Assembly (NCBI RefSeq): GCF_963921235.1 | Contig: NC_086108.1 | Span: 51,834,001 to 51,898,000, forward strand | Direction of reading: 5' to 3' | From: Mobula hypostoma | Lineage: Eukaryota | DNA: 64,000 nt | Shown: in pieces, positions 22,990 to 64,000 of the stretch | How the letters are laid out: each line of letters opens with the position of its first letter | Position numbering within the stretch: the stretch's first letter is position 1 | Notes under the pieces: model-generated | Told to the model about the DNA's origin: nothing | The model's database searches: none | What the model saw: only the letters and a program-made list of their open reading frames with translations | Made by a program: the position numbers and the translations under genes

Positions 22990-24090
22990 AACACAAGAGA
23001 TTCTGCAGATGATGGAAATCCAGAGCAACACACATAAAATGCCAAAGGAACTTGGGAAGTGAGGCAACATCTACGAAAATAAATAATGTGTCGATATTTC
23101 TGGCCGAGACCATTCATGAGGTCTGGAAAGGAAGGGAGAAGATGCCAGAATAAAAAGGTGGAGGGAGCAGAAGGAGGACTTGCTAGAAGGTGATAGGTGA
23201 AGTTAGGTGGGTAGGTGAGTGGGAAAGGTAAGGGGTGAAGAAGAAGGAATCTGATAATAATGGAAAGTTGGCTCTCCAGAAAGGAAGAAAGGGAAGAAGG
23301 AGGGGCAACATGGGGAGATGAAAGGCAGGTGAAGAGAAGAGGTAAGAGGTCAGAGTGGGGTATAGAGGAAGGGGGAGGGGAAAATTACCAGAAGGAGAAA
23401 TCAATGTTCATGTCATCAGGTTGGAGGTTATCTACTGCTCCTCCACCCTGAGATTGGTCTCAACATGGCAGAAAAGAGGCCATGGACTGACTTGTTGGAA
23501 CAGGAATGGAGATAGAAATTAAAATGGTTGGCCATTGGGAAATTCCACTTTTGTGGATGGAGCAGAGGTGCTCTACAAAGCAGCCACCAAATTTATGTTG
23601 AGTGTCCCCAGTGTAGAGGAGGCTGCATTGGGAGCACTGGATTTGCAGGTGAAGTGTTGCCTCAATTGGAAGGACTGTTTGGGGCTCTGAATGGAGGTAA
23701 GGGAGGAGGTGAATGGACAGGTGTAGTATTTCTCTCACTTGCGGGGATACATGCCAGGAGGGAGATTAGTAGGGAGGGATGAATGGACAAGGGAATCATG
23801 GAGGGAATATCTCCTGTGGAAAGTGGAGAGCAGAGGGATAGTAAAGGTGTATATTGGTGGTAGGATCCCATTGAAGATGGTGGAAGTTGTGGAGAATGAT
23901 GTGTTGGATATGGAGGCTCATGGCATGGTAGATTTGACAAGAGGGGCTCCATTTCTGTTAAGGCGGTGGGAAGAAGGTGAGATCATGGACATCCAGGAAT
24001 TGGAGGAAATTCGGGTGTAGGCTGCATCACTGGTGGAGGAAGGGAAACCCCATTCTTTGAAGGAGGTATCTGTCTTGCTTCTGCTACACC
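22990..24090 (-). mobile_element. Older Penelope-like element (RT C-terminus, GIY-YIG, pLTR)
   Basis: Minus strand reads SFKEWGFPSST and CSQCSLLYTGDT. The pLTR is at about 22990-23400. Confidence 0.85.
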
Positions 24091-24339
24091 TAGCATGAAA
24101 CAAAGATTCTGACTATCTCCCCCTCTCTATGCTACTCATAATTGAGCAGAGCATCCTTGAGCTAGGAATCCAATCATTTAAGGATCTTAAAATTCTTTAA
24201 AGTCATTAATCATTTGAGCAAATAAACCACAGAATGCCAATCTTAAACAAAAAAAAAGTAACGGTAATGGTGAAAAGAATCAGGAACATTGAATGTGACA
24301 ATTTTAAGATTATAAGTGCTGAATAGACTTTTCACTCCC

Positions 24340-25015
24340 AGGTCTTTCTCTCTTACTTGATCTTCCCCACTCATTTCCTCTCCATTCTCATTTTTTGTCC
24401 TTTTGCACTAACTCTTTTCACCCACTTCATGGCTTCACCCATACTCTATCCATACCGTCAATATATCTACCTCTCATGCAACCTATTCTCTTGGTCCTTT
24501 TATCTCTTGACATTTCTCCCTTCTTTCTCTTTCTCTCTCCCTCCAATCCACATTCTCTCTTTAAAACAGCCACAACCCCCTAAACTAGCATGTCCACCCT
24601 CTCTCATTTATTCTGCTGACTTGCATTCCTATCCCATTTGGCTTCCTTTGTTTGCTTGCCCATCTTTAAGCCAGTTAACCTTACCTTGCACTCTCTCCCT
24701 TGCTAGCTCCCCACTTTCCTCCCCCGGATTGCTACATTCTTTTTTTATCCTTTTCTCATTTTCTCCCACCATTTTCTCTCTTTTACTCTGTGTTCCTCAT
24801 CTTCCCTCTACCTTGCTATCCCCCCTAAATCTTAATCTAGCTCTCTTGCCAACCCCTCACAGATGTACACACTCAATTCTCTCTTCCTCTTGCATGCATT
24901 CTCAATGCTTGTGCACCTGTAACATGGTTTCCACCTTACAACGTTCCAACATTCTTCTTGTTTACTCTCCACCAGCACCCCTTTCTCTGTTCTTCCCTCC
25001 CATTCTACCTTCAAC
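24340..25015. repeat. Pyrimidine-rich low-complexity tract
   Basis: Strong C/T bias on the plus strand. The 222-aa ORF is an L/S/P/F compositional artefact. Confidence 0.75.
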
Positions 25016-26372
25016 TGAAATCTAATCTTTGAAGAAAGTCAATTCAGCCGCAATCAAGTTGATGAATTCAAAATGCACTCATTATTAAGGGTGACAATAC
25101 AGTTCAGATCATTCGGGTTTGCGTCAGATCCATGACTAATAAATAATGTTTTAATATCTTTGAATTTTTAAATGAAAAGGGAGTCAGCTTGAATACTGAT
25201 CATTGCCACCATCAAATAGGGGATTTCAGAGGTTCAAATTGAATAGGTGTTGTGGTACTAAATGCCACTATTTCCATGGAAAACCACAATTAGCCTATTT
25301 TTTTCTTTATGAATATTGACAAGAAGGATTAACTTTATCCAAAATCTGGACTGAAATATTTGAATTTAATATGTTTTCCCTCAGGCTCCTTGCTGCCATT
25401 TTTTTCTTTTTTACTTATGATTAGACAATTCATACTCTGAATTAAAATGATTGCATAGAAATTGGCTTGTGAGAAACTATGACCGCATCCATCTTTGGCT
25501 AGAGTTGTTCAGTATTGGAATACCAATAGACATGTGAACAATGATGCATTCAAAGAATCACCTCATGTATTAATAAGGGTTACAAATCCTTTGCAGCAGT
25601 CAGCTCGAAGTAGTTGAGCCACTAATTAATGGTGAGAATGAGAGAAGCAGAGGAGTACCTTTTCCCCAGTGGATGCAGGAACGTCAAAGCTTTCTGTCAT
25701 CATAAACTACTTGGCTGTATACTTAAGAATCTCTTGGGTCACACATGTTTAAGTCAACCTTCTTGCTAAGTTGCCTGTATCACACATGTTTGTGAGAGAA
25801 TAGTTTAAAGTTTGGTCTTTATCCGTCATTAAGAAAGCTGTACTTAAATAGACCTTCCAAGCTGATACAGAATTTAAATGGAGCAAATCCAAAATAATAA
25901 ATAGAAACATGAATAGAATTTTATGCCTGGGCCTTAATGAAATGCTTTATGTCAGCCATCCATCCATTTGTAAGACTTGATAGTTCAATGAAGCAGTGCT
26001 GCTCTCTGTGAAAATCAATGTGGATAGTTGCAAATATAATTCTGAATCAGCAATAGGGAATTCTGTGGTAACAAAAGCTATTAATCACTTTCAGGCATTG
26101 TTGACAAAACCTGCATGAATTGCTGAACTCTAATTACTATTTAAGGAGTTGATGGCGAGAGGTTTCCTTTATTTACTGCTGTCTGGTTTACTGTGAAGGC
26201 ACACTGCTAATGACTAGAAATGGAATGGCAAGAAGGTAATTGGACAGACCATGTTTTGTGGACTGTACATAGCCAGACAATTATATACAGTACATTGAAG
26301 GGCAGATGCTGCACTGCTGTATCTGCACTGGAACACGTGGATAGATACAAGGCTAGGTTTGCAGCATGTCTT

Positions 26373-28075
26373 CACCTCGATCGTGACCCCACTAAGGAGC
26401 ACCAGGCCATTGTCTCCCACACCATCACCGACTTTAGCCACTCAGGGGATCTCCCATCCACTGCTACCAACCTTATAGTTCCCATACCCCACACTTCCCG
26501 TTTCTACCTCCTACCCAAGATCCACAAACCTACCTGTCTCGGTAGACCTATTGTCTCAGCTTGCTCCAGCACCACCGAACTCATTTCTGCATACCTCGAC
26601 ACGATTTTATCCCCCCTTGTTCAATCCCTTCCTACCTATGTTCGTGACACTTCTCACACTCTTAAACTTTTCGATGATTTTAAGTTCCGTGGCCCCCACC
26701 GCTTTATTTTCACCATGGATGTCCAGTCCCTACATACTTCCATCCCCCATCAGGAAGGTCTCAAAGTTCTCCACTTCTTTTTGGATTCTAGACCTAACCA
26801 GTTCCCCTCTACCACCACTCTGCTCCGTCTAGCGGAATCAGTCCTTACTCTCAATAATTTCTCCTTTGGTTCCTCCCACTTCCTCCAAACTAAAGGTGTA
26901 GCTATGGGCACCCATATGGGTCCCAGCTATGCCTGCCTTTTTGTTCGCTTTGTGGAACAATCTATGTTCCAAACTTATTCTGGTATCTGTCCCCCACTTT
27001 TCCTTCGCTACATCGACGACTGCATTGGCACTGCTTCCGGCACGCATGCTGAGCTCGTTGACTTCATTAACTTTGCCTCCAACTTTCACCCTGCCCTTAA
27101 GTTTACCTGGTCCATTTCTGACACCTCCCTCCCCTTTCTAGATCTTTCTGTCTCTATCTCTGGAGACAGCTTGTCTACTGATGTCTACTATAAGCCTACT
27201 GACTCTCACAGCTATCTGGACTATTCCTCTTCTCACCCTGTCTCTTGCAAAAATGTCATCCCCTTCTCACAATTCCTCCATCTCTGCCGCATCTGCTCTC
27301 AGGATGAGGCTTTTCATTCCAGGATGAGGGAGATGTCCTTCTTTTTTTAAAGAAAGGGGCTTCCCTTCCTCCACCATCAACTCTGCTCTGAAATGCATCT
27401 CCCCCATTTCACGCACATCTGTTCTCACTCCATCCTCCCGCCACCCCACTAGGAATAGGGTTCCCCTTGTCCTCACCTACCACCCCACCAGCCTCCGGGT
27501 CCAACATATTATTCTCCGTAACTTCCGCCACCTCCAACAGGATCCCACCACTAAGCACATCTTTCCCTCCCTCCCCCCCTGCTTTCCGCAGGGATTGCTC
27601 CCTACGCGACTCCCTTGTCCATTCATCCCCCCCATCCCTCCCCACCGATCTCCCTCCCGGCACTTCTCCTTGTAAGTGGAACAAGTGCTACACATGCCCT
27701 TATACTTCCTCCCTCGCCACAATTCAGGGCTCCAGACAGACCTTCCAGGTGAGGTGACACTTCACCTATGAACCAGCTGGGGTGATATACTGCGTCCGGT
27801 GCTCCCAATGTGGCCATCTATATATTGGCGAGACCCGATGCAGACTGGGAGATCGTTTCGCTGAACACCTACACTCTGTCTGCCAGAGAAAGCAGGATCT
27901 CCCAGTGGCCACACATTTTAATTCCATGTCCCATTCCCATTCTGATACACCTATCCATGGCCTCCTCTACTGTAAAGATGAAGCCACACTCAGGTTGGAG
28001 GAACAACACCTTATATTCCGTCTGGGTAGCCTCCAACCTGATGGCATGAACATTGACTTCTCAAACTTCCGCTAA
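26373..28075 (+). pseudogene. Penelope RT and GIY-YIG endonuclease, disrupted
   Basis: FYLLPKIHK, RPIVS, MDVQSLHTSI, QTKGVAMGT, RYIDD, LPFLD and IYCVRC..LYIGET motifs. Frameshifts lie in a T-run (about 27345) and a C-run (about 27575), with a TGA at 27755-27757. Confidence 0.93.
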
Positions 28076-28374
28076 TGCCCCACCTCCCCCTCGTACCCCA
28101 TCCGTTATTTATTTACGTACACTCATTCTTTTCCTCGCTCTCCTTTATCTCCCTCTTTCCCTCTCACTATACCCCTTGCCCATCCTCTGGGCTTTTTTTC
28201 CCCCCCTCCCCCTTTTCTTTCTCCCTAGGCCTCCTGTCCCATGATCCTCTCATATCCCTTTTGCCAATCACCTGTCCAGCTCTTGGCTCCATCCCTCCCG
28301 CTCCTGTCTTCTATCATTTCGGATCTCCCCCTCCCCCTCCCAATTTCAAATCTCTTACTAGCTCTTCTTTCAGT

Positions 28375-28412
28375 TAGTCCTGACGAAGGGTCTCAGCCTG
28401 AAACGTCGACTA
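28375..28412 (+). ncRNA. Minimal hammerhead ribozyme motif in Penelope pLTR
   Basis: Stem I TAGTC/GACTA, core CTGACGA and GAAA, palindromic ACGT helix III. Predicted cleavage after GTC at 28407. Confidence 0.75.
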
Positions 28413-31400
28413 TACCTCTCCCTGGAGATGCTGCCTGGCCTGCTGCGTTCACCAGCAACTTTTATGTGTGTTGCTTCCAGTAGGATAGTGTCATGTTCCC
28501 TTGCCATTGCATTAACTGGCATAAACAGCTTTTTCCTCAGCTGTTACCTGGACATCCATGCACACCCCATTGACCCACTGCCTTAATAAGGATAGAGTTC
28601 TTCTCATCTGCACCCACCACCCATGAGCTTCTGCATTCAACATTTTGTGGGTGTTAAAACTGGGAATAGATATTCTTAGAGAAACATACAGCAGAGATGT
28701 GTTTTTTTTTATGGACCACTTGCACAGGGTTCTGGACAGATTTGTCCCACTGAGCCAAATCTCAGTGTCTTGCTTACCATCTAAGAAAGGATGGTACGGT
28801 ATGGTTGACATGAGAGGTGGAACTTTTAATTGAGGAAAAAGGAAGCATACGTAAGGTGTAGTAAGGAAAAATCAGGCAAGGCTTTTGAGACACAGGAAGG
28901 AGCATAAGATAGGACTTAGAGAGCTAGAAGGGGACATGAGAATGCCTTGGCAAATAGGATTAAGGGAAATCCTAAAGCCTTCTACACATCTGTGAAAAAC
29001 CGGAGAATGAGGTTAAAACCACTCAAGGATAAATGGGAAACATTACCTAGAAGTGGAGGTGGTAGAGATGATCCTTAATGAATACTTTGCTTTAATGTTC
29101 ACCAGTGAGAGTGATAATGATGAATGGGAGTTTAGCGTAGAACAGGCTAATATGGTGGAAAATGCTGAGGTTAAGAAAGAGGTTGAGTTGGGAGAGGTAG
29201 AGCTGAAAAACATTAGAATAGACAAGACCCCAGGGCCGGGCAGGATATACCCCATGTTACTATGAGAAATTGGGCATTGTTCAGGTTGTTGGGCATTGAG
29301 AATGATCTTTGTGAATCCCTGGCCATAGAAGAGTGGTATCAGAGGATTAAAGGATGGTACTGTAATTGTCCTGTTGTTTAATAAAGGTACTAGGATAATC
29401 CAGGGAATTATAAATTTGTATTTGAAAACCTATCACAAAGCATTTGTAGATTGGTTTCCAAATTCCATGACTTCCTTTATCAGAAGAAAGGTAATGGGGA
29501 TAATCCAGGGAATTATAGACCAGTGAGTTTTACATCAGTGATGGGCAAACTATTGGAGAGGATCCTTAGGGACCAGGATCTATAAGCATTTGGAGAAGGA
29601 TAGTCTTATTAGGGACAGTCACCATGGCTTTGTGGGGAGTAGGTCATGCCTCACAACCCTAACTGAGTTCTTTGAAAAGGTGACAAAACAAATTGATGAA
29701 GATGGAGCAGTGGATGTGGCGTACATGGATTTTACATCAGGCATTTGACAAGGTTCTCCATAGTAGGCTCATCCAGAAAGTCATGACGCATGGGATCCAT
29801 GGAAAGTCAGCTGCATGGATTCAGAACTGGTTGCCCACAGAAGACATGTGGAGCATATTCCACCTGGAAGACAGTGACTAGTGATGATCTGCAGGGAACT
29901 GTTCTAGGACACTTTCACTGTGATTCTTAAAATGGATTAGACGAGGAAATAGATCTGGGTTAGTAAATTCGCAATCAGAATAAGGTTTCATAACACTGGC
30001 ATATATCACGAAATTTGTTGTTTTTGCGGCAACAGTACAAGGCAATACATAATAATAATGAAACTATAAATTACAATAAGAACTATTTTTAAAATTAAAT
30101 TAAATTAGTAGTGCAAAAAGACAGCAAAAATATTGAAGCAGAGGTGTTTCGTTCATTTGTTTTTGTGCACGAGGAGGGATTTGGGGGTTGATGTGCCTGT
30201 TCCATTTTTGTTTGTTTTTGTTGTGCAGGGAGGGGAAATTTGGCAGGGGGGAGTTGATGATCATGCTGCCTTTCTTTTCCTTCTTGGTCTCATGGCTATC
30301 CAGAGAAGAAGAATTTCAGAGTTGTTCACTTTGATAATAAATGAACCTTAGAACCTTTATTCCTAAAACGTTGAGTGTGTGTCTTCAGGTTCCTGTACCT
30401 CCTTCTTGATGGTAGCAATGAGAAGAGGGTATGCCCTGGGTGATGAGGGTCCTTAATGATGTAAACCACCTTTTTGAGGCATTGCCATTTGAAGATGTCC
30501 TGCATGTAGGGGAGGCTAATGCCCATGATGGAGCTGGTTGAGTTCACAACTTTCTACAGCTTTTTCCGATCCTGTGCAGTCACCCCTCCATACCAGAAGG
30601 TGACGCAACCAGTTAAAATGCTCTCCATGGTACATCTGTAGAAATTTGTGAGAGTCTTTGCTGTTATACCAAGTCTCTTCAAACCCCTGATGAAATATGG
30701 CTGCTGTCATGCCTTTTTTCTAATCGTATCAACATGTTGGACCCAGGATAGAACTTCAGAGATGTTCATACACAGGAACTTGCTCACCATTTCCACTGCT
30801 GATCACTCAATGAGGACTAGCGTGTGTTCCCTCGACTTCCCCTTCCTGAAGTCTGCAGTCAATTCCTTGATCTTATTGACGTTGAGTGCACAGTTGTTGT
30901 TATGACGCCACTCAACCAGTTGATCTTTCTCACTCCTATATGCCTCCTTGTCACCATATGAAATTCTGCCAACAATAGTTGTATCATTGGCAAATTTATA
31001 GATGGTGCTGGAGCTGTGCCTAGCCACACATTTGTGGACGTAGAGAGAGAAGGGCAGTGGGCTAAGCATGCATCTTTGAGGTGTATCAGTGTTGATTGTT
31101 AGTGAGATGTTATTTCTGATCTGAACTGACTATGGTCTCCCAGTGAGGAAGCCAAGCACCAGGTGGTACAGAGGCCCAGACACTTTGGATCTGTTGATTA
31201 GTACTGAGGGCGTCATGGCGTTGAACGCTGAGCTGTAATCAATAAACAGCCGCCTGACATAAATATTGCTATTGTCCAGGTGATCTAACAAAAGTGGAGC
31301 GTCAGTAAGATTGCATTCACTGAAGACCTATTGTGGCGATGGGTAAATTGCAGCATGTCCAGGTCCTTGCTTAGGCAGGAGTTGATTCTGGCCATGACGA

Positions 31401-32156
31401 AACTCTTAACACACTTCATCACAGTAAATGTGTGTGCCACTGGGCAACTGTCATTGAGGCAGCTCACCCTGCTCTTGTTGGACACTGGTATGATTGTTGC
31501 CCTTTTAAAGTAGGTGGGAACCTCTGACTGCAGCAGTGAGGGGTTAAAAACTTGAACATTTCCACCAGTAAGTTGGCACAGGTTTTCACTACCCTACCAG
31601 GAATACCATCAGGGACTGACACCTTATGAGGGCTCAACCTCTCAAAAGATGTTTTGACGTTGGTCTCCAAGACAGAGATCACAGGGTCACCAGATGCTGC
31701 AGGGATTTGTATAGGTATTGTTTTATTCTCCCTTTTAAAACATGCATAGGTGTTGAGCTCATCTGGGAGTGAGGCATCACAGCCATTCATGATGTTAGGT
31801 TTCGCCTTCATCTCTAACTTCAATCAGAATTGTTTTCTCACTTTTAAAGTAGCCTTCTTTAGGTCATACCTCGACTTCTTGTATAGTTCTGGATTATCTG
31901 TCTTGATGCAGATCTAGCCCTTACCAGATTATAAATCTCCTGGTTCATCCACAGCTTCTGGTTTGGGTATGTCCGGCATGTTTTGAAAGGCACACACAGG
32001 TCTTGAAGAAGCTGGTGACAACTGTGGCATATTCATTCAGATTCAAAGATGGGTCCCCAAATATCGTCCAGTCCACCAACTCAAAGCAGTCCTGTAAGCA
32101 CTCCTCTATCTCGCTTGACCATTGGTGGTGTGGTCTTTAAGGCTCTGCCTGTATGC

Positions 32157-32720
32157 TGTGTTTGTCCATTGTCGACGTCAATGAGGACCTCAACGCCATT
32201 ATGATGGTGTCGAGACTAGCGCATGATTTGGATTTAAGTGAGGGACAGTTGTGCAGCATCAGCCTCACTCTCTCTTCCCAATTCCCATCTGGATCCAGTG
32301 GCAAGACAGAGTCCAGACGGCTAGAGGTGGGACTAGGCGCTGTGGATGATGAAGATGTCTTCTGTGTCTTGTCCTGATCTACACATTCCACGACACTTGC
32401 AGAGACCGCCTTCTTGACCGTTCGACCTTCCATTGGTCTTGTCTGCTCTATCTGCCGGAGTCTGTCTTCACATGCTGGGATAGACAACTCCCTATCTCAC
32501 CAAGGGTTTCAGACCCATCAGCTACCCTCACCTGGTTTAGCCGGCTTGTCAAAGCCATTGCCCGGGGTGTGGCCACTATCGCATGCAAACAGCTACGGGG
32601 AGCCACAGGGGAGAGTTGAGTGCCAGGTGGGGACCAAAGGTGGACTAACTACCTTGAAAAGGACGTGACATGTTCCCCCACCAGAGGTGCTATCCCTCCC
32701 TAACACCCCATACACCCCAA
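32157..32720 (-). mobile_element. RTE-derived non-autonomous element/SINE inserted in the Rex1/Babar LINE
   Basis: Non-coding RTE 5'UTR-like sequence flanked by ATGCT on both sides. The host LINE resumes immediately afterwards. Confidence 0.7.
32527..32718 (-). ncRNA. Candidate HDV-like self-cleaving ribozyme
   Basis: P1 GGGGTGT/ACACCCC, P3 GGC/GCC, L3 starting TCCCCG, P1.1 GG, P4 GGCTT/AAGCC, J4/2 GGCTAA and P2' ACCAGGTGAG occur in HDV order. Confidence 0.55.
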
Positions 32721-38410: not shown

Positions 38411-40887
38411 CACAATCTGAAGAAATGCAAGAGCCAGATGCCAAACCATCAGGATTCTCTAACAATCTGATACTGTTTAATTTGAACTGAACAATGTAAA
38501 ATTTGAAGTATTACTTATCAAACCTGTGGGAAAGGAAAGACCTGCAATAACTTGTTACTTATTTTTGTGCTACAAAAGAATGAGAGAATCTGCTCAGATA
38601 TTATGGTGGTGAGTTCAGACTAGATTATAGTCATAGTCATACTTTATTGATCCCAGGGGAAATTGGTTTGCAAATATAGTGGGTGGATCTCCATAGTTTC
38701 TGGAGAAATTGGTGATGTTCTCATTCAGTGCATGTACCAAAGGATTTGATGCATTTTCTACCCACACAAAATCATTGTGAGTTTTGAAATTATTTTAATA
38801 ATGATCATAGAATTATCTATCTTTCCAAGACAGGGCTTGATAGATACCCAAGGCACAAATTGTAAAACATCCTGTGCTTTAGTACAGAGCATAATTTTAT
38901 TACATCAGAGTGACTCATTCTTATGTGCTTGACCCAACTTGCACTGTGAATTAAGAATTGACAATAGCTGCATTAATCTGCTTGTTATAGTATAAAATTG
39001 TACTTCTTTATCCTCAAACCAACCTGTGCCTGTACTAATACTTGAATGAAATCAGCCAAAACTAAATGTTAGTAAGAATGTAGAAATCACTATCCCATTT
39101 GAATAATTTGAACTTCAGATGATACTGTAAAACATTGGGCTGGATGGACATTCTACACCACTCCCAATTTTCCTATACTTTGAAAATCAGTCTGTTCCTC
39201 CCAGCAATTTAATGGTGCTTCAGCTAAGATTTCCTTTGGTAATTTTCCTTTAGTAACTGTTCCACATATATAATTAGATAAATACATGAAACCAGATAGA
39301 TTATTTTATATTTATGTTGATGATATGTATTGTCCACATATGTAAATGCATAAATGTTGGCACAGGTGATGTGATATCAAGTTCAACAACAGCTTACATT
39401 TAAGTTATACCTTTAATAACATCCACTATCCCAAGAAGTTTCACACAATGTTGATCAGACACCAACTAGGAAAAGTATGGTCAAGACCAGAATATCTTTT
39501 CAAAGACTAAAAATGCATTGTTTTGAAAAGAGATTTACAGCTTACATTTCACAACTGAAAGCACTCCCTCCATAGTCATATGAAAAGTTAGAAGTCTAAA
39601 AACCAGTTGTTGTGGAAGTGGAGAATAGAGAAAAAAAATAATTTATCAATATTAACGTTTAATGTAAGAGGTAAAATTCACAACTTTGTTAAAATAACAT
39701 GCATTCATATATATATAGTAATGAATTAATTAATATTGATCTTTCCTATATTTTAAACTGTGTAAATTATTTTTATTCTTTTAAACACGGTCCAGAAAAA
39801 ATGAAGCTACTTCAAACATCAGCTATTTGCTTCCAAAAATAACTCAGACTTTAAGAAACAGTCTCCAGTTGAAACTAAATCACTGACTTGGATTGTGCTG
39901 TATTTGTTTACTTTCAGAGCTTTCAGTCAACCATATGGGCATGATGGAAACCACAGACTCCAAACCTGACTGACTTGAAGCCACCAACACATCCTCTTGG
40001 CCACTTGTAATTATGTGGAATCCAATGCCAGAATATCACAACTTGGATCAAACAATAAATTGCTTACTGTAATGGAGAGGAAGTTTCCAAATAGCAACGT
40101 TTTACAGACATATAACTTTTTTAATCTATGGAATCTGGGAATACTTTTTTCAGGTTTCCAAATTTATTATTAAAGAATATAAGGATACTAAAATTGCATG
40201 GTCCTGCACTTCAGCTGTATGATGATTTTCTTGAATATTTCTTTAGATAACTTCTCCCCCCCCCCGTATAAAACTGCATAAATAGTGTGCTGTTAAACTA
40301 CGGGGGGGGGGGCGGAGACTGGTGGTATCTCTGAAGATGAAATGTTTACACAGTTTCCACACAAGGAAGAAATAGTTTATACAAATGAAAACAAAATGAT
40401 CAGATTTCTCCATCAAACTCAGCCTCCAAAGCATTCTGGATTGCTTATTTGGTTTCAATATTTTACAACTGGCTGCTTCATATTGCAAATCAAGGAACAA
40501 TGCCTCCTGGGGAAATCCAAAAAATTAAGAAGGTCCAAGTACCATACCAATTTTGGATAAATAACCAGATGGTCAGCTGTTGGAAATGTGTCCCATGAGT
40601 CACTTAATACTTGAAGCAGTTTAGACTGGAAGATGAGTTCAAGATGCAGTATTGCTTTTCTTCCTGATTCACTTGTCTTCATTACAGGCTTCTCTCTGTT
40701 CCTTTTCTTTCCATTTCTCCAGGCATTGATCGAAATATGAAATTCTGTAGCTGATAACCATTATCCAATATTTCACCAGCAGACGTTCCTTATCTTTCAC
40801 AAGGGTTGAGAACTGTCTCAATAGCTATGTAAAGCATGGTAGTGAAGTTTCTTTCTCCTCTCTCACACATGCACACAATGAATTGGA

Positions 40888-41057
40888 TCCAAGTAACTGA
40901 TGATTAACATTTCAGAAGCTTTCTCAGATATGTTGCCTATAGAAACTGTTGCTGTTGGACCACTGCTATCATCTCTTCCACGCTTCCTCTGAGCAGTGTG
41001 ATCCTTTCTTGGTCCAATATGCTTTCTAAACAGAGGCACAGAGGTTGGCACCAACAC
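40888..41057 (-). pseudogene. RBM25: RBM25 pseudogene fragment (N-terminal region into RNP2 of the RRM)
   Basis: VLVPTSVPLFRKHIGPRKDHTAQRKRGRDDSSGPTATVSIGNISEKASEMLI-(1-nt deletion)-QLL aligns with vertebrate RBM25 VLVPTVSMVGKHLGARKDH...GPTTTVFVGNISEKASDMLIRQLL (recalled from memory). It has an RNP2 F-to-S change, a frameshift and no GT donor. Confidence 0.85.
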
Positions 41058-41102
41058 CTGTTTACCTTGTGTTGGGCAATGGTTCATGGTGTACAGCATA
41101 GA

Positions 41103-42716
41103 GACAGTTGTGGCATCATCCAGTACCTTTCGTAATTTGCTTTTGGTTGGGTCTGTTACAGAGGATGTGGCATGCAAATGGTGGATCGATCTCTAATCAA
41201 GTTGTCTTCGCAACAGGCACTCCCACAAAGCTGGCCCTATTTTTACTGTATACAGACCCAATATGGCTTGTTGGTTGTTGTATTTCACTGCTACGAATGT
41301 CATTCACACAGGAGCTATCTTTTCTCCAGTGTATGTACTTAATTGGATATCTGCAGGCTTCATTTTAGTATCTTTGAAATACTGCTCAAACTCATTTTGT
41401 GGAACGACTGCAGCAGTTGAGCCAGTGTCCAATGTAAAATTCCATTTTAATTATTTGTCATTTACTTTTGTTGTAAGCCATATTGTTAGTTTTCACAATA
41501 CAAATCACAATGCTACTCAATCCTATGTAATTCTCATAATTATCAGTTTATTCATCAGGAGCATGCAGATTAGTGTTCTTTTTCAAACTGCAACTTGACT
41601 TTTTATCTTTTTCCCTACCCTGTGTAGTTCATTTATTTTTGTCTGCCTACGTGCTTTTTGTATAGTCCTACTTTGTTGCATTTCCTGCAAATTTCACCTT
41701 TAAACCTGCTTGGTCTGATATATGTGAGCCGCTGCCACAATTATAACACAATTTGTTTTGCCAGGCGGACTTCTGTTTAAATGTTGCAATTTTGTTCACA
41801 CTCACTTTCATTCCTGACTGCAACTCAATTACGTCTGACTACTGTTTCCATTGATACAGCAATTTTAACTGATCTTTAAATCTAAGTTGTTCTTCAGTTA
41901 GAAGCCATTTTGAATACTTTCTTGTAAGATTCCACAAACTAAGTGATCCCTCAGTGCACCATTAAGTCCATTACTGAACTAACAACGCTCAGACAACTTC
42001 TTCAATTCTGCCACGTACATTGAAGTATTCTCCCCTCCCTTTTGATTCCACTAAAGCGTTCTGCAATCAACAGTAGTTTTGGTTCTAAATGTTCCTGCGT
42101 TACCTTCATGATAGCAGAAAAGGTAATTTGAGCTTGTTTGGTTGGAGCAGTTAAGATTCTAAACAAATTTTATGACTTTAAATAAGATGCACTCAGCAAA
42201 ACTGGTACTTGTTTCTCATTGCCTATTCCATATGCTTTAAAATACTGTTCAATTAGATCAATATACATGAGCCAGTTATCTGTTGAGCAATTGATCGTGT
42301 CTATCTTTCTGATATAGCCAGCCATTTCAGTTTATTTTTGTTAATGATTATTATCACCCAGTACACACTGTTTTTGAACCCATGAATTCTTCTGTTTTCT
42401 GCCTTTTATTTTACTCGATCATCCTTCCTTTTGCAAAGAAAATGTTCTGTGATTTTTTTTCAAAACTTGAACATCTCACTGCACTTTTTTTAAAACTTGA
42501 ACTTCTCGCTGCGCTTCAACAAGTAGGTAGTCGTCTCGGATTCATTTAAAAATACCTTGTTATCTCTTGTAACTCAAAACAAAAACTAAGTGAAAGGAAA
42601 TCAAGGCAGTTGGGACGAAAGTCCTGTATATTCGTTTTTACATTAAGTGAGATGTGTACATAAACAATACATTTAAAATATTACTCAAATCCCACTGAAA
42701 TATTAAATATACAACA
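41103..42716 (-). mobile_element. Gypsy LTR retrotransposon 5' half (LTR, gag, protease), truncated before RT
   Basis: LTR-like AT-rich segment at about 42558-42716. Gag ATG at 42325 (MAGYIRKIDT..NWLMYIDLIEQYF), zinc knuckle CYNCGSGSH, protease LDTGS (about 41421-41432) and linker LRKVLDDATTV. Confidence 0.85.
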
Positions 42717-42759
42717 GTACATTTCATCCGGGAAAATAGGTTGAAAGTTGCAGCTTTAG

Positions 42760-43300
42760 GAGTTAAGGAAAAAAAGGTTATTGGGAAAGAAAACTAATAA
42801 AGATTAATTTCTAGAGTGAAGGAATTGAAAATTTGGAATTTTATGCTGAACTGTATCTAATCTTAATTGGACCACTTTGGAACACTCTGCAATTCTGCTT
42901 GCTATATGACAAAATGCGATTGAGAGGATGGAAAGGTACAGAGATTTCAAAGGTGACATCAGATATATGAGGGTATAAATCAGGAAGCAATGAACAGACT
43001 AGATTTCTTTACTCTTGAGAAAGGGAAGCTGAAGGGTACCATACAGAGTTCTTTAAAAGTCTGAAAGCTTTCGATAGAATGGAAACAGAAAGAAAAGCAT
43101 CATTTGAGCCAACAATGTAAGATAGTAGCATACAGATCTGCAATGGAATTCATCTTTTGTTTTGTGAAGCTGTGAAACTTGCTGCCAAGGAGAAAGACTG
43201 AATTAAATGCACTGATGCCTGAAAAGAATATGAAGGTGAAGGGATCAAAGGATCATGCTAACAGATTTGGATGAGGATAGATTTGAAGAAGATAGGTCAA
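42760..43300 (+). mobile_element. Very old CR1 3' fragment
   Basis: Decayed GGACCAC..TGGAACACTCTGCAATTCTG and CTTGAGAAAGGGAAGCTGAAGGG. Confidence 0.55.
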
Positions 43301-53537: not shown

Positions 53538-53746
53538 CAAGCAACACACATCAAAGTTGCTGGTGAACGCAGCAGGCCAGGCAGCATCTCTAGGAAGAGG
53601 TACAGTCAACGTTCATCCTGACGAAGGGTCTCGGCCCGAAACGTCGACTGTACCTCTTCCTAGAGATGCTGCCTGGCCTGCTGCGTTCACCAGCAACTTT
53701 GATGTGTGTTGCTTGAATTTCCAGCATCTGCGGAATTCCTCGTGTT
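53538..53746 (+). mobile_element. Penelope pLTR foldback element with a hammerhead core in the loop
   Basis: Perfect 70-bp inverted repeat (53538-53607 / 53646-53715). CTGACGA...GAAACGTC at 53618-53645. Flanks TGAGTCACCTCCA / TGAGTCATCTTCA. Confidence 0.88.
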
Positions 53747-62979: not shown

Positions 62980-64000
62980 GTCAGCATTATCTTTACCTTT
63001 AATATGAGTTATCAAAATATTATACTCCTGTAACATCAAACTTTGTTGCTGAATTGGAGTTTGATTTATTTCCATAACCATTTTCCTTAACCAAGCCCGG
63101 ACCAACAACATAACCAAGGTAAGTCACAGTGGCATGACCAAATTCACTTTTAGCTAAGTTAATAGTTAAGTTAGCTTTTGAAAGCCTTTCAAATAGCTTC
63201 TCCACTGCAGTAATATGTGCTTCCCAAGTATCATTTCCTGTAACTAAATAATCAATATAGGCATCTGTATCTGTTAACCCATGAATCACAGAATTCATCA
63301 TCTGCTGGAAAGTACCTGGTACATTCTTCATCCCAAAGGGAAGAACATTATATTCATATAACCCAGACGGGGTTACAAATGCAGAAATCTCTCTACCGCT
63401 ATCTGTCAATGGAACACACCAATAACCTTTTAACAAATCAATCTTTGTAAGGAACTTTGCTTTTCCCACTTTATCCACACAATGATCCACTCTAGGGATT
63501 GGATATGCATCAGTTTTTGTTACAGCGTTCACCTTCCTGTAATCTGTACAAAACCGAATACTACTGTCTGGCTTAGACTCCATAACACACGGTGAACTCC
63601 AATTTGAATTAGAAGGTCTAATAATATTATTCTCTAAAATATACTTAATTTCTTGTTCAGCAGGTTCACATTTTTCCATGTTCATCCGATATGGATGTTG
63701 CTTTATGGGTTTGGCATCTCTAACATCTACATCATGTGAAGCCACTGTGGTTCTTTTAGAAACCTCTGGAAATAAATCCCTATATTTAAAAATTAACTGC
63801 TTCATCTGCTGCCTCTGCTCTGGCTGTGAATGAGCTAATTTCTCTTCAATATTTTCCAGAATTGTTGAGTTTGGTAGCCTGGCAGAAATAATGTTGGGTT
63901 TAAAATGAGTTTCAGATGAATCATCCATTAAGTTCCTAGTGGGATCAGACTCATTATTATTCACCACAACAGTCATAGTAGCAGACTGTTTCTCATAATA
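62980..64000 (-). pseudogene. Gypsy reverse transcriptase with mostly deleted RNase H
   Basis: PIKQHPYR, SNWSSP, RFCTDYRKVN, KIDLLKGYW and LPFGMKN motifs; YIDY replaces YIDD. The RNase H tail LQEYNILITHIKGKDNAD is in another frame. Confidence 0.92.

Follow-up and report, generated by a model that had tools for sequence, protein, structure and literature searches.

The 64,000-nucleotide stretch of the Mobula hypostoma genome analysed here (contig NC_086108.1 of RefSeq assembly GCF_963921235.1, positions 51,834,001 to 51,898,000 of the forward strand; hereafter the window, whose own numbering is used throughout) contains a minus-strand Gypsy long terminal repeat (LTR) retrotransposon remnant, running from 42716 to about 40890, in which a gag-protease region is fused to a piece of the host gene RBM25. 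We are fairly confident that it is an old and dead copy, deleted at its 3′ end, of a Gypsy family in cartilaginous fishes that is non-autonomous, has been amplified and contains a piece of spliced RBM25 mRNA. The Gypsy-RBM25 chimera forms an amplified family with many copies and one shared junction, and the RBM25 mRNA was probably captured by template switching. The original prediction, made from the letters alone, had preferred a chimera made by LTR-element capture over two independent insertions. This choice is supported by diverged paralogs that bridge the same junction, the template switch itself remaining the probable cause. The high-copy family and the later, 3′-truncated status of this locus were missed.

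The features of a Ty3/Gypsy element, namely a gag with a CCHC knuckle and an aspartic protease, are present by homology. The K02A2.6-like Gypsy polyproteins P0029 and P0031-33 cover the minus strand from 42325 to about 41100 by tblastn (E-values down to 2e-36), including gag, zinc knuckle, protease and linker, and the sequence search gave matches with an E-value of 4e-20. The predicted order of LTR, gag, zinc knuckle and LDTGS protease, stopping at the linker between protease and reverse transcriptase (RT), is thereby confirmed. The decayed gag occupies 41493-42325 (ATG at 42325; tblastn with the same polyproteins) and includes a zinc-knuckle remnant at about 41716-41751, for which the Pfam zf-CCHC match is weak and below the cut-off (E 0.076). 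The decayed aspartic protease at 41195-41492, with LDTGS at 41432-41418 and three in-frame stops, matches Pfam gag-asp_proteas below the cut-off as well (E 0.017). It is followed by the protease-RT linker at 41115-41194, which aligns to the linkers of fish Gypsy polyproteins and ends with the residues KVLDD. The copy is considered dead because stops are numerous in its gag-protease region and the frame changes at least five times. A tblastn search of the window with Gypsy polyproteins gave no match to RT, RNase H or integrase domains after 41100, so the element is not autonomous; the sole RT-like match of these polyproteins is a separate Gypsy RT at 63104-63607 (29-31% identical). The PDB sequence search returned a single match (E 1.3), which was disregarded, and neither Rfam nor ARAGORN gave a match on the window.

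RBM25 follows the linker in sense, in frame and without a spacer. The best match is the RBM25-like isoform X1 of Heptranchias perlo (E 4e-22), and isoform X2 is 75.8% identical over 66 amino acids (41099-40902), so the RBM25-like peptide in the same frame and orientation was correctly recognized. Protease, linker and RBM25 share one frame from 41447 to 40863, which is interrupted by stops at its codons 48 and 85. The predicted open reading frame (ORF) at 40863-41177 is indeed a single frame, but from stop to stop it spans 40863-41192; the triplet at 41177 is TTG, and no ATG occurs before 41099. Likewise, the peptide placed at 41057-40888 is RBM25, but in-frame similarity begins at about 41114 and stops at 40902, with QLL continuing in another frame to about 40890. 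The approximately 45 nucleotides regarded as a spacer between Gypsy and RBM25 are RBM25 themselves, since 41105-41058 matches the shark RBM25 proteins P0001, P0012 and P0013. This 16-codon segment (41058-41105) is absent from the teleost proteins returned (P0002-P0011). Because P0013 also matches the three codons before it (ATT), the RBM25 piece is taken to start at about 41114, inside the Gypsy linker.

The junction itself consists of four codons (ATTV, 41103-41114) that are identical to P0013 and also match the A-x-x-V of the Gypsy linker, in which A and V stand at the same positions in all five Gypsy relatives examined. It is a candidate microhomology, as this overlap is what a template switch would leave. 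The RBM25 exon from VLVPT to QLLA extends over 40890-41057 and contains the start of the RNA recognition motif (RRM), which begins at residue 72 of P0013. Its RNP2 is altered from VFVGNI to VSIGNI, and a frameshift is located near 40901. The mRNA has about 840 codons, and the captured piece sets in at roughly codon 50. Since a chance join is in frame one time in three, the in-frame fusion alone is no sign of function. The 16-codon segment and four optional codons before the RRM exon possibly represent a chondrichthyan-specific exon or splice extension.

The captured piece has the spliced form. Between GKQ and VLVPT, the RefSeq isoform X1 and the transcript-like protein P0013 have four residues more than isoform X2, whereas in the window GKQ is joined straight to VLVPT, as in the short form X2. 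Because the isoforms differ by 12 nucleotides, an intron with two acceptors probably lies at this position of the parent gene. Exon limits were taken from six read-through ORFs of genomic contigs (P0038, P0046, P0080, P0094, P0185, and P0186). In five of them, VLVPT is preceded by unrelated sequence with a terminal Q, and QLLA is followed by VS in all six. With its X2-type junction and exon limits read from these proteins, the host piece corresponds to spliced mRNA, as in an LTR-mediated retrocopy. The Heptranchias models P0001 and P0012 (216-220 amino acids, 27.6-kb contig) end like an intron read-through and are probably truncated models of the true gene.

For the detection of further copies, contigs of four runs (of 24 listed, with 11 organism labels) were aligned to 39000-43300 at 80% likeness; the small shares in the remaining runs were left out of account. 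X5, X10, and X20 are DNA of the organisms B, D, and K, and X21 is, at a guess, an RNA run of organism A. The flanks have a depth of 10-18 over 39000-40871 on the 3′ side and of 6-15 on the LTR side. The bin containing RBM25 only (40872-41015) reaches 707 (X5), 804 (X10) and 435 (X20) times the flank median, which is 0.27-0.33 of the median gag-protease depth, and the site 40952 reaches 157-224 times the flank median. Because summed contig depth gives no copy number, these values are taken to mean hundreds of copies or more. Among the pieces listed, 12 are paralog-like over the RBM25 part and 13-20% diverged. Four of these, from X5, X20 and X21, bridge the junction with at least 31 letters on each side at 17.5-19.5% divergence, and two more extend 29 letters across it. 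The orthologous flank contigs are 2.2%, 5.5% and 8.2% diverged; as the bridging pieces are far more diverged than these, they represent other copies of the family.

Among the runs listed as containing the sequence, none is labelled RNA. The X21 contigs are found in the repeat part only, 17-18% diverged from the window copy, with none on the flanks, and are uninformative on the expression of this locus. One of them joins 41131 to 42666 via 20 other letters (depth 21), possibly a smaller derivative without gag-protease. In a further single contig, 42294 is connected to 42677 (depth 543; the short side has only 23 letters). Related DNA could be confirmed for none of 21 pattern matches in viral contigs and none of 596 in metagenome contigs.

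The 5′ LTR, maybe with a leader, was assigned to 42339-42716 by means of the pile-up of loose contig ends, the depth step, motif positions and Tandem Repeats Finder (TRF). Its 5′ edge at 42716 (TGTTG) is firm: loose ends of 181 contigs in X5 and 177 in X20 pile up here (agreement 0.37) with flanks unrelated to one another, and the depth falls from about 23,000-29,000 inside to 11-15 outside. The 3′ edge is uncertain, as TAACA ends at 42558 or 42339, and an AATAAA at 42410 speaks for the longer of the two. The four bases directly adjoining the LTR (42717-42720), which read GTAC on the minus strand, are a candidate left target-site duplication (TSD); a search for AACA+GTAC or AACA+TGTAC downstream in the window found no partner. 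There is also no second LTR copy in the 64-kb window. Within the LTR or leader, a 30-bp tandem duplication (42455-42516, TRF) was found, the family depth dips about 20-fold in the bin 42456-42599, and a likely orthologous contig of organism K has 32 gap letters over 42378-42690.

At the other end, family homology gives way to single-copy DNA at 40890-40901, and no 3′ LTR follows. Several paralogous contigs stop aligning at 40901, and their remaining letters differ from the flank seen here. In B and D, orthologous contigs (39000-40939 and 39000-41011, respectively) run across the break, and the K contig ends at 40899; the break is common at least to B and D, and probably to K too. As contigs of B, D and K also cross the edge between LTR and flank, the insertion predates 8% divergence. 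The original prediction considered the missing 3′ LTR and polypurine tract to weaken the model. Neither was found, the missing 3′ LTR being explained by the locus being a later, 3′-truncated copy of the family. A poly(A) tail or an own TSD is not present at the break of this copy, whose original 3′ end is lost. Three observations were named beforehand as evidence against capture, namely the lack of an RBM25 match, RBM25 intron sequence on both sides, and an orthologous locus with the RBM25 piece but without Gypsy. None was made: the RBM25 match is strong, the piece is spliced and without flanking intron, and the relatives carry the LTR edge, B and D together with the RBM25 piece, although no single orthologous contig covers the whole element.

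The break is located within a few bases of the RBM25 exon end (QLLA), with no donor GT after it; whether this is a coincidence is unexplained. Further RBM25 sequence or a second captured mRNA at 40890-40300 was considered and rejected due to the lack of a Pfam match in six frames and the single-copy depth. This region has 7-10 stops per frame, and its alignment to downstream RBM25 scores 38, a background value that 15 of 206 control windows also reach. A polypurine tract was rejected for the purine run at 40864, since this run lies in single-copy DNA with no LTR after it.

In the proposed course of events, an RBM25 mRNA would have been packaged together with Gypsy RNA, and the RT may have switched templates within the protease-RT linker, where both RNAs would share a short stretch. 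The resulting chimera kept the LTR and gag-protease and was copied many times, presumably with RT and integrase supplied in trans; the amplification is seen in the contig depth. One copy would then have been inserted here before the split from K, with which the 5′ insertion edge is shared. The part 3′ of about 40890 including the 3′ LTR was presumably lost by deletion or rearrangement before the split from B, D and probably K, at the break described above, and the copy decayed into the present fragment, as its stops and frame changes document. No present function of this locus is indicated; it is a dead fragment.

Several alternative origins were considered. The abundance of long interspersed nuclear element (LINE)-type RT remnants in the window suggests that a LINE could have made an RBM25 retrocopy that was inserted into a genomic Gypsy element, which subsequently lost pol by internal deletion and amplified as a non-autonomous hybrid. 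A vertebrate-wide preprint, in its available part, links retrocopy numbers to non-LTR elements (10.64898/2026.06.26.734816), and the 3′ end of the RBM25 piece is not visible in this copy. However, this course needs two events instead of one, and a plain insertion gives no reason for a piece that starts at about codon 50, in sense and in frame, with a four-codon overlap with the linker; we therefore consider it improbable. Capture at the DNA level could have happened in two ways, by a Gypsy element in an RBM25 intron or segmental duplicate acquiring genomic exons, or by the splicing of a read-through transcript from the element into RBM25. It would explain why both ends of the piece lie near exon limits: the 16-codon segment starts at the 5′ junction, and an exon ends a few bases from the 3′ break. 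The internal GKQ/VLVPT join is in the spliced form, though, and the exon end lacks a donor GT. The 64-kb window holds no other RBM25 exon, the linker stops in the middle of an ORF, and the ATT codons upstream of the 16-codon segment also match P0013, all of which makes a DNA-level origin very unlikely.

The presence of one LTR only and the lack of a single orthologous contig over the whole element would also fit a chimera restricted to this locus, two adjacent independent insertions, or an assembly join. Against this stand the paralogs from three runs, 17-20% diverged, that span this very junction, as well as the depth of the RBM25 part, more than 150 times that of the flanks in three organisms, which leave this explanation next to no probability.

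Some points weigh against the capture of RBM25 mRNA by an amplified Gypsy element as well. LTR-element sequence flanks the RBM25 piece on the 5′ side only, where a retrocopy of this type has it on both, and this copy shows neither the 3′ LTR nor a second switch from RBM25 to the LTR element. The four-codon overlap was read at the protein level and the intron at GKQ/VLVPT from protein isoforms. Summed contig depth is not equal to copy number, and the listed pieces are 32 of 76,804 aligned. A chimeric Gypsy-RBM25 protein was not found among the 11 and 3 matches of two protein searches; in a third search, 13 matches at or near the junction were inspected among the 150 listed of 263, each of which was Gypsy, RBM25 or unrelated.

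It is conceivable, although doubtful, that the capture was selected, i.e., that a founder Gag-protease-RBM25 fusion containing the RRM, or RBM25 sequence acting in cis on RNA processing, export or escape from silencing, aided an element lacking pol. The equally doubtful corollary is that such a benefit raised the depth of the chimera to roughly one third of that seen for all related gag-protease copies. If true, a vertebrate retrotransposon would carry an accessory cassette derived from its host.

The capture mechanism as such is already published. According to the available part of Tan et al. (Genome Res 26:1663, 2016; PMC5131818), chimeras of this type occur in fly, mosquito, zebrafish, chicken and mammals, 25 of 29 junctions in fly show microsimilarity with a median of 6 bp, chimeras can be copied again as non-autonomous elements, and older cases can have lost the LTR on one side. 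Like the LTR-mediated retrocopies described there, the element in the window combines part of a spliced mRNA with retrotransposon sequence in the sense orientation and the same frame, and the junction shows an apparent overlap; the mRNA piece may stand in for an internal ORF. In the same part of that paper, secondary duplication yields few copies and sharks are not mentioned, whereas here the depth suggests hundreds of copies or more, and the RBM25 family is old, with paralogs 13-20% diverged, and common to several species. Other LTR elements with host exonic sequence cited there are maize Bs1, whose copies share their switch points, and human HERV-K/FAM8A1. In contrast to Bs1 (1-5 copies, three parental genes) and FAM8A1 (a single case), one gene, a Gypsy carrier and a far higher depth are found here. 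Measured against the cases in this part of the paper, amplification on this scale is unusual.

With the fish K02A2.6-like Gypsy elements (P0029 from Triplophysa, P0030 from Scleropages, P0031 from Misgurnus, and P0034 from Metynnis), the window copy shares the MAGYI gag start, the zinc knuckle, the protease (47-54% identity in this region) and the linker. In these elements the linker leads into RT (in P0029 also RNase H and integrase), while here it is followed by RBM25. Compared with chondrichthyan RBM25 (Heptranchias perlo XP_067833824/5 and the Logan protein P0013), there is 76% amino acid identity over 66 residues, the 16-codon segment and the short splice form, but the window copy has no more than about 75 codons, with an RRM that breaks off behind RNP2, an altered RNP2 and a shifted frame. 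No published account of a Gypsy-RBM25 family was found by title or start of the abstract among the papers listed, a search that did not extend to Repbase, Dfam and most subscription papers. The available parts of the preprints 10.1101/2025.06.08.657570 and 10.64898/2026.06.26.734816 do not mention RBM25, RBM or Gypsy, and their supplements could list RBM25 retrocopies.

Tc1, LINE-type and Gypsy remnants make the window a repeat-rich stretch of animal DNA. The RT at 63104-63607 on the minus strand (Pfam RVT_1, E 2e-27) belongs to a different Gypsy lineage, with about 30% identity to K02A2.6-like RTs, and lies in a long open frame reaching the window end. A Tc1-type transposase remnant (Pfam DDE_3, E 8e-15) with a 228-amino acid open frame and an upstream piece is located at 15-955 on the minus strand. 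On the plus strand, 26214-27757 contains an RT-like frame of 378 amino acids (RVT_1, E 2e-6, just under the cut-off), which we take to resemble a Penelope-type element. Two exon-like open frames of 119 amino acids (28512-28871 and 32137-32496, minus strand) have no significant Pfam match. At 53538-53715, a near-perfect inverted repeat with 76-nucleotide arms (99% complementary, 26-nucleotide gap) lies in a LINE-like region.

The Gypsy-RBM25 family would extend LTR-mediated gene capture to cartilaginous fishes, and it indicates that a chimera of this kind can become a major repeat family instead of staying at few copies. The copies preserve an old RBM25 splice form, and the family can mislead gene annotation as well as estimates of RBM25 expression in these genomes. 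With many aged copies in several species, selection on a captured host cassette during amplification becomes testable.

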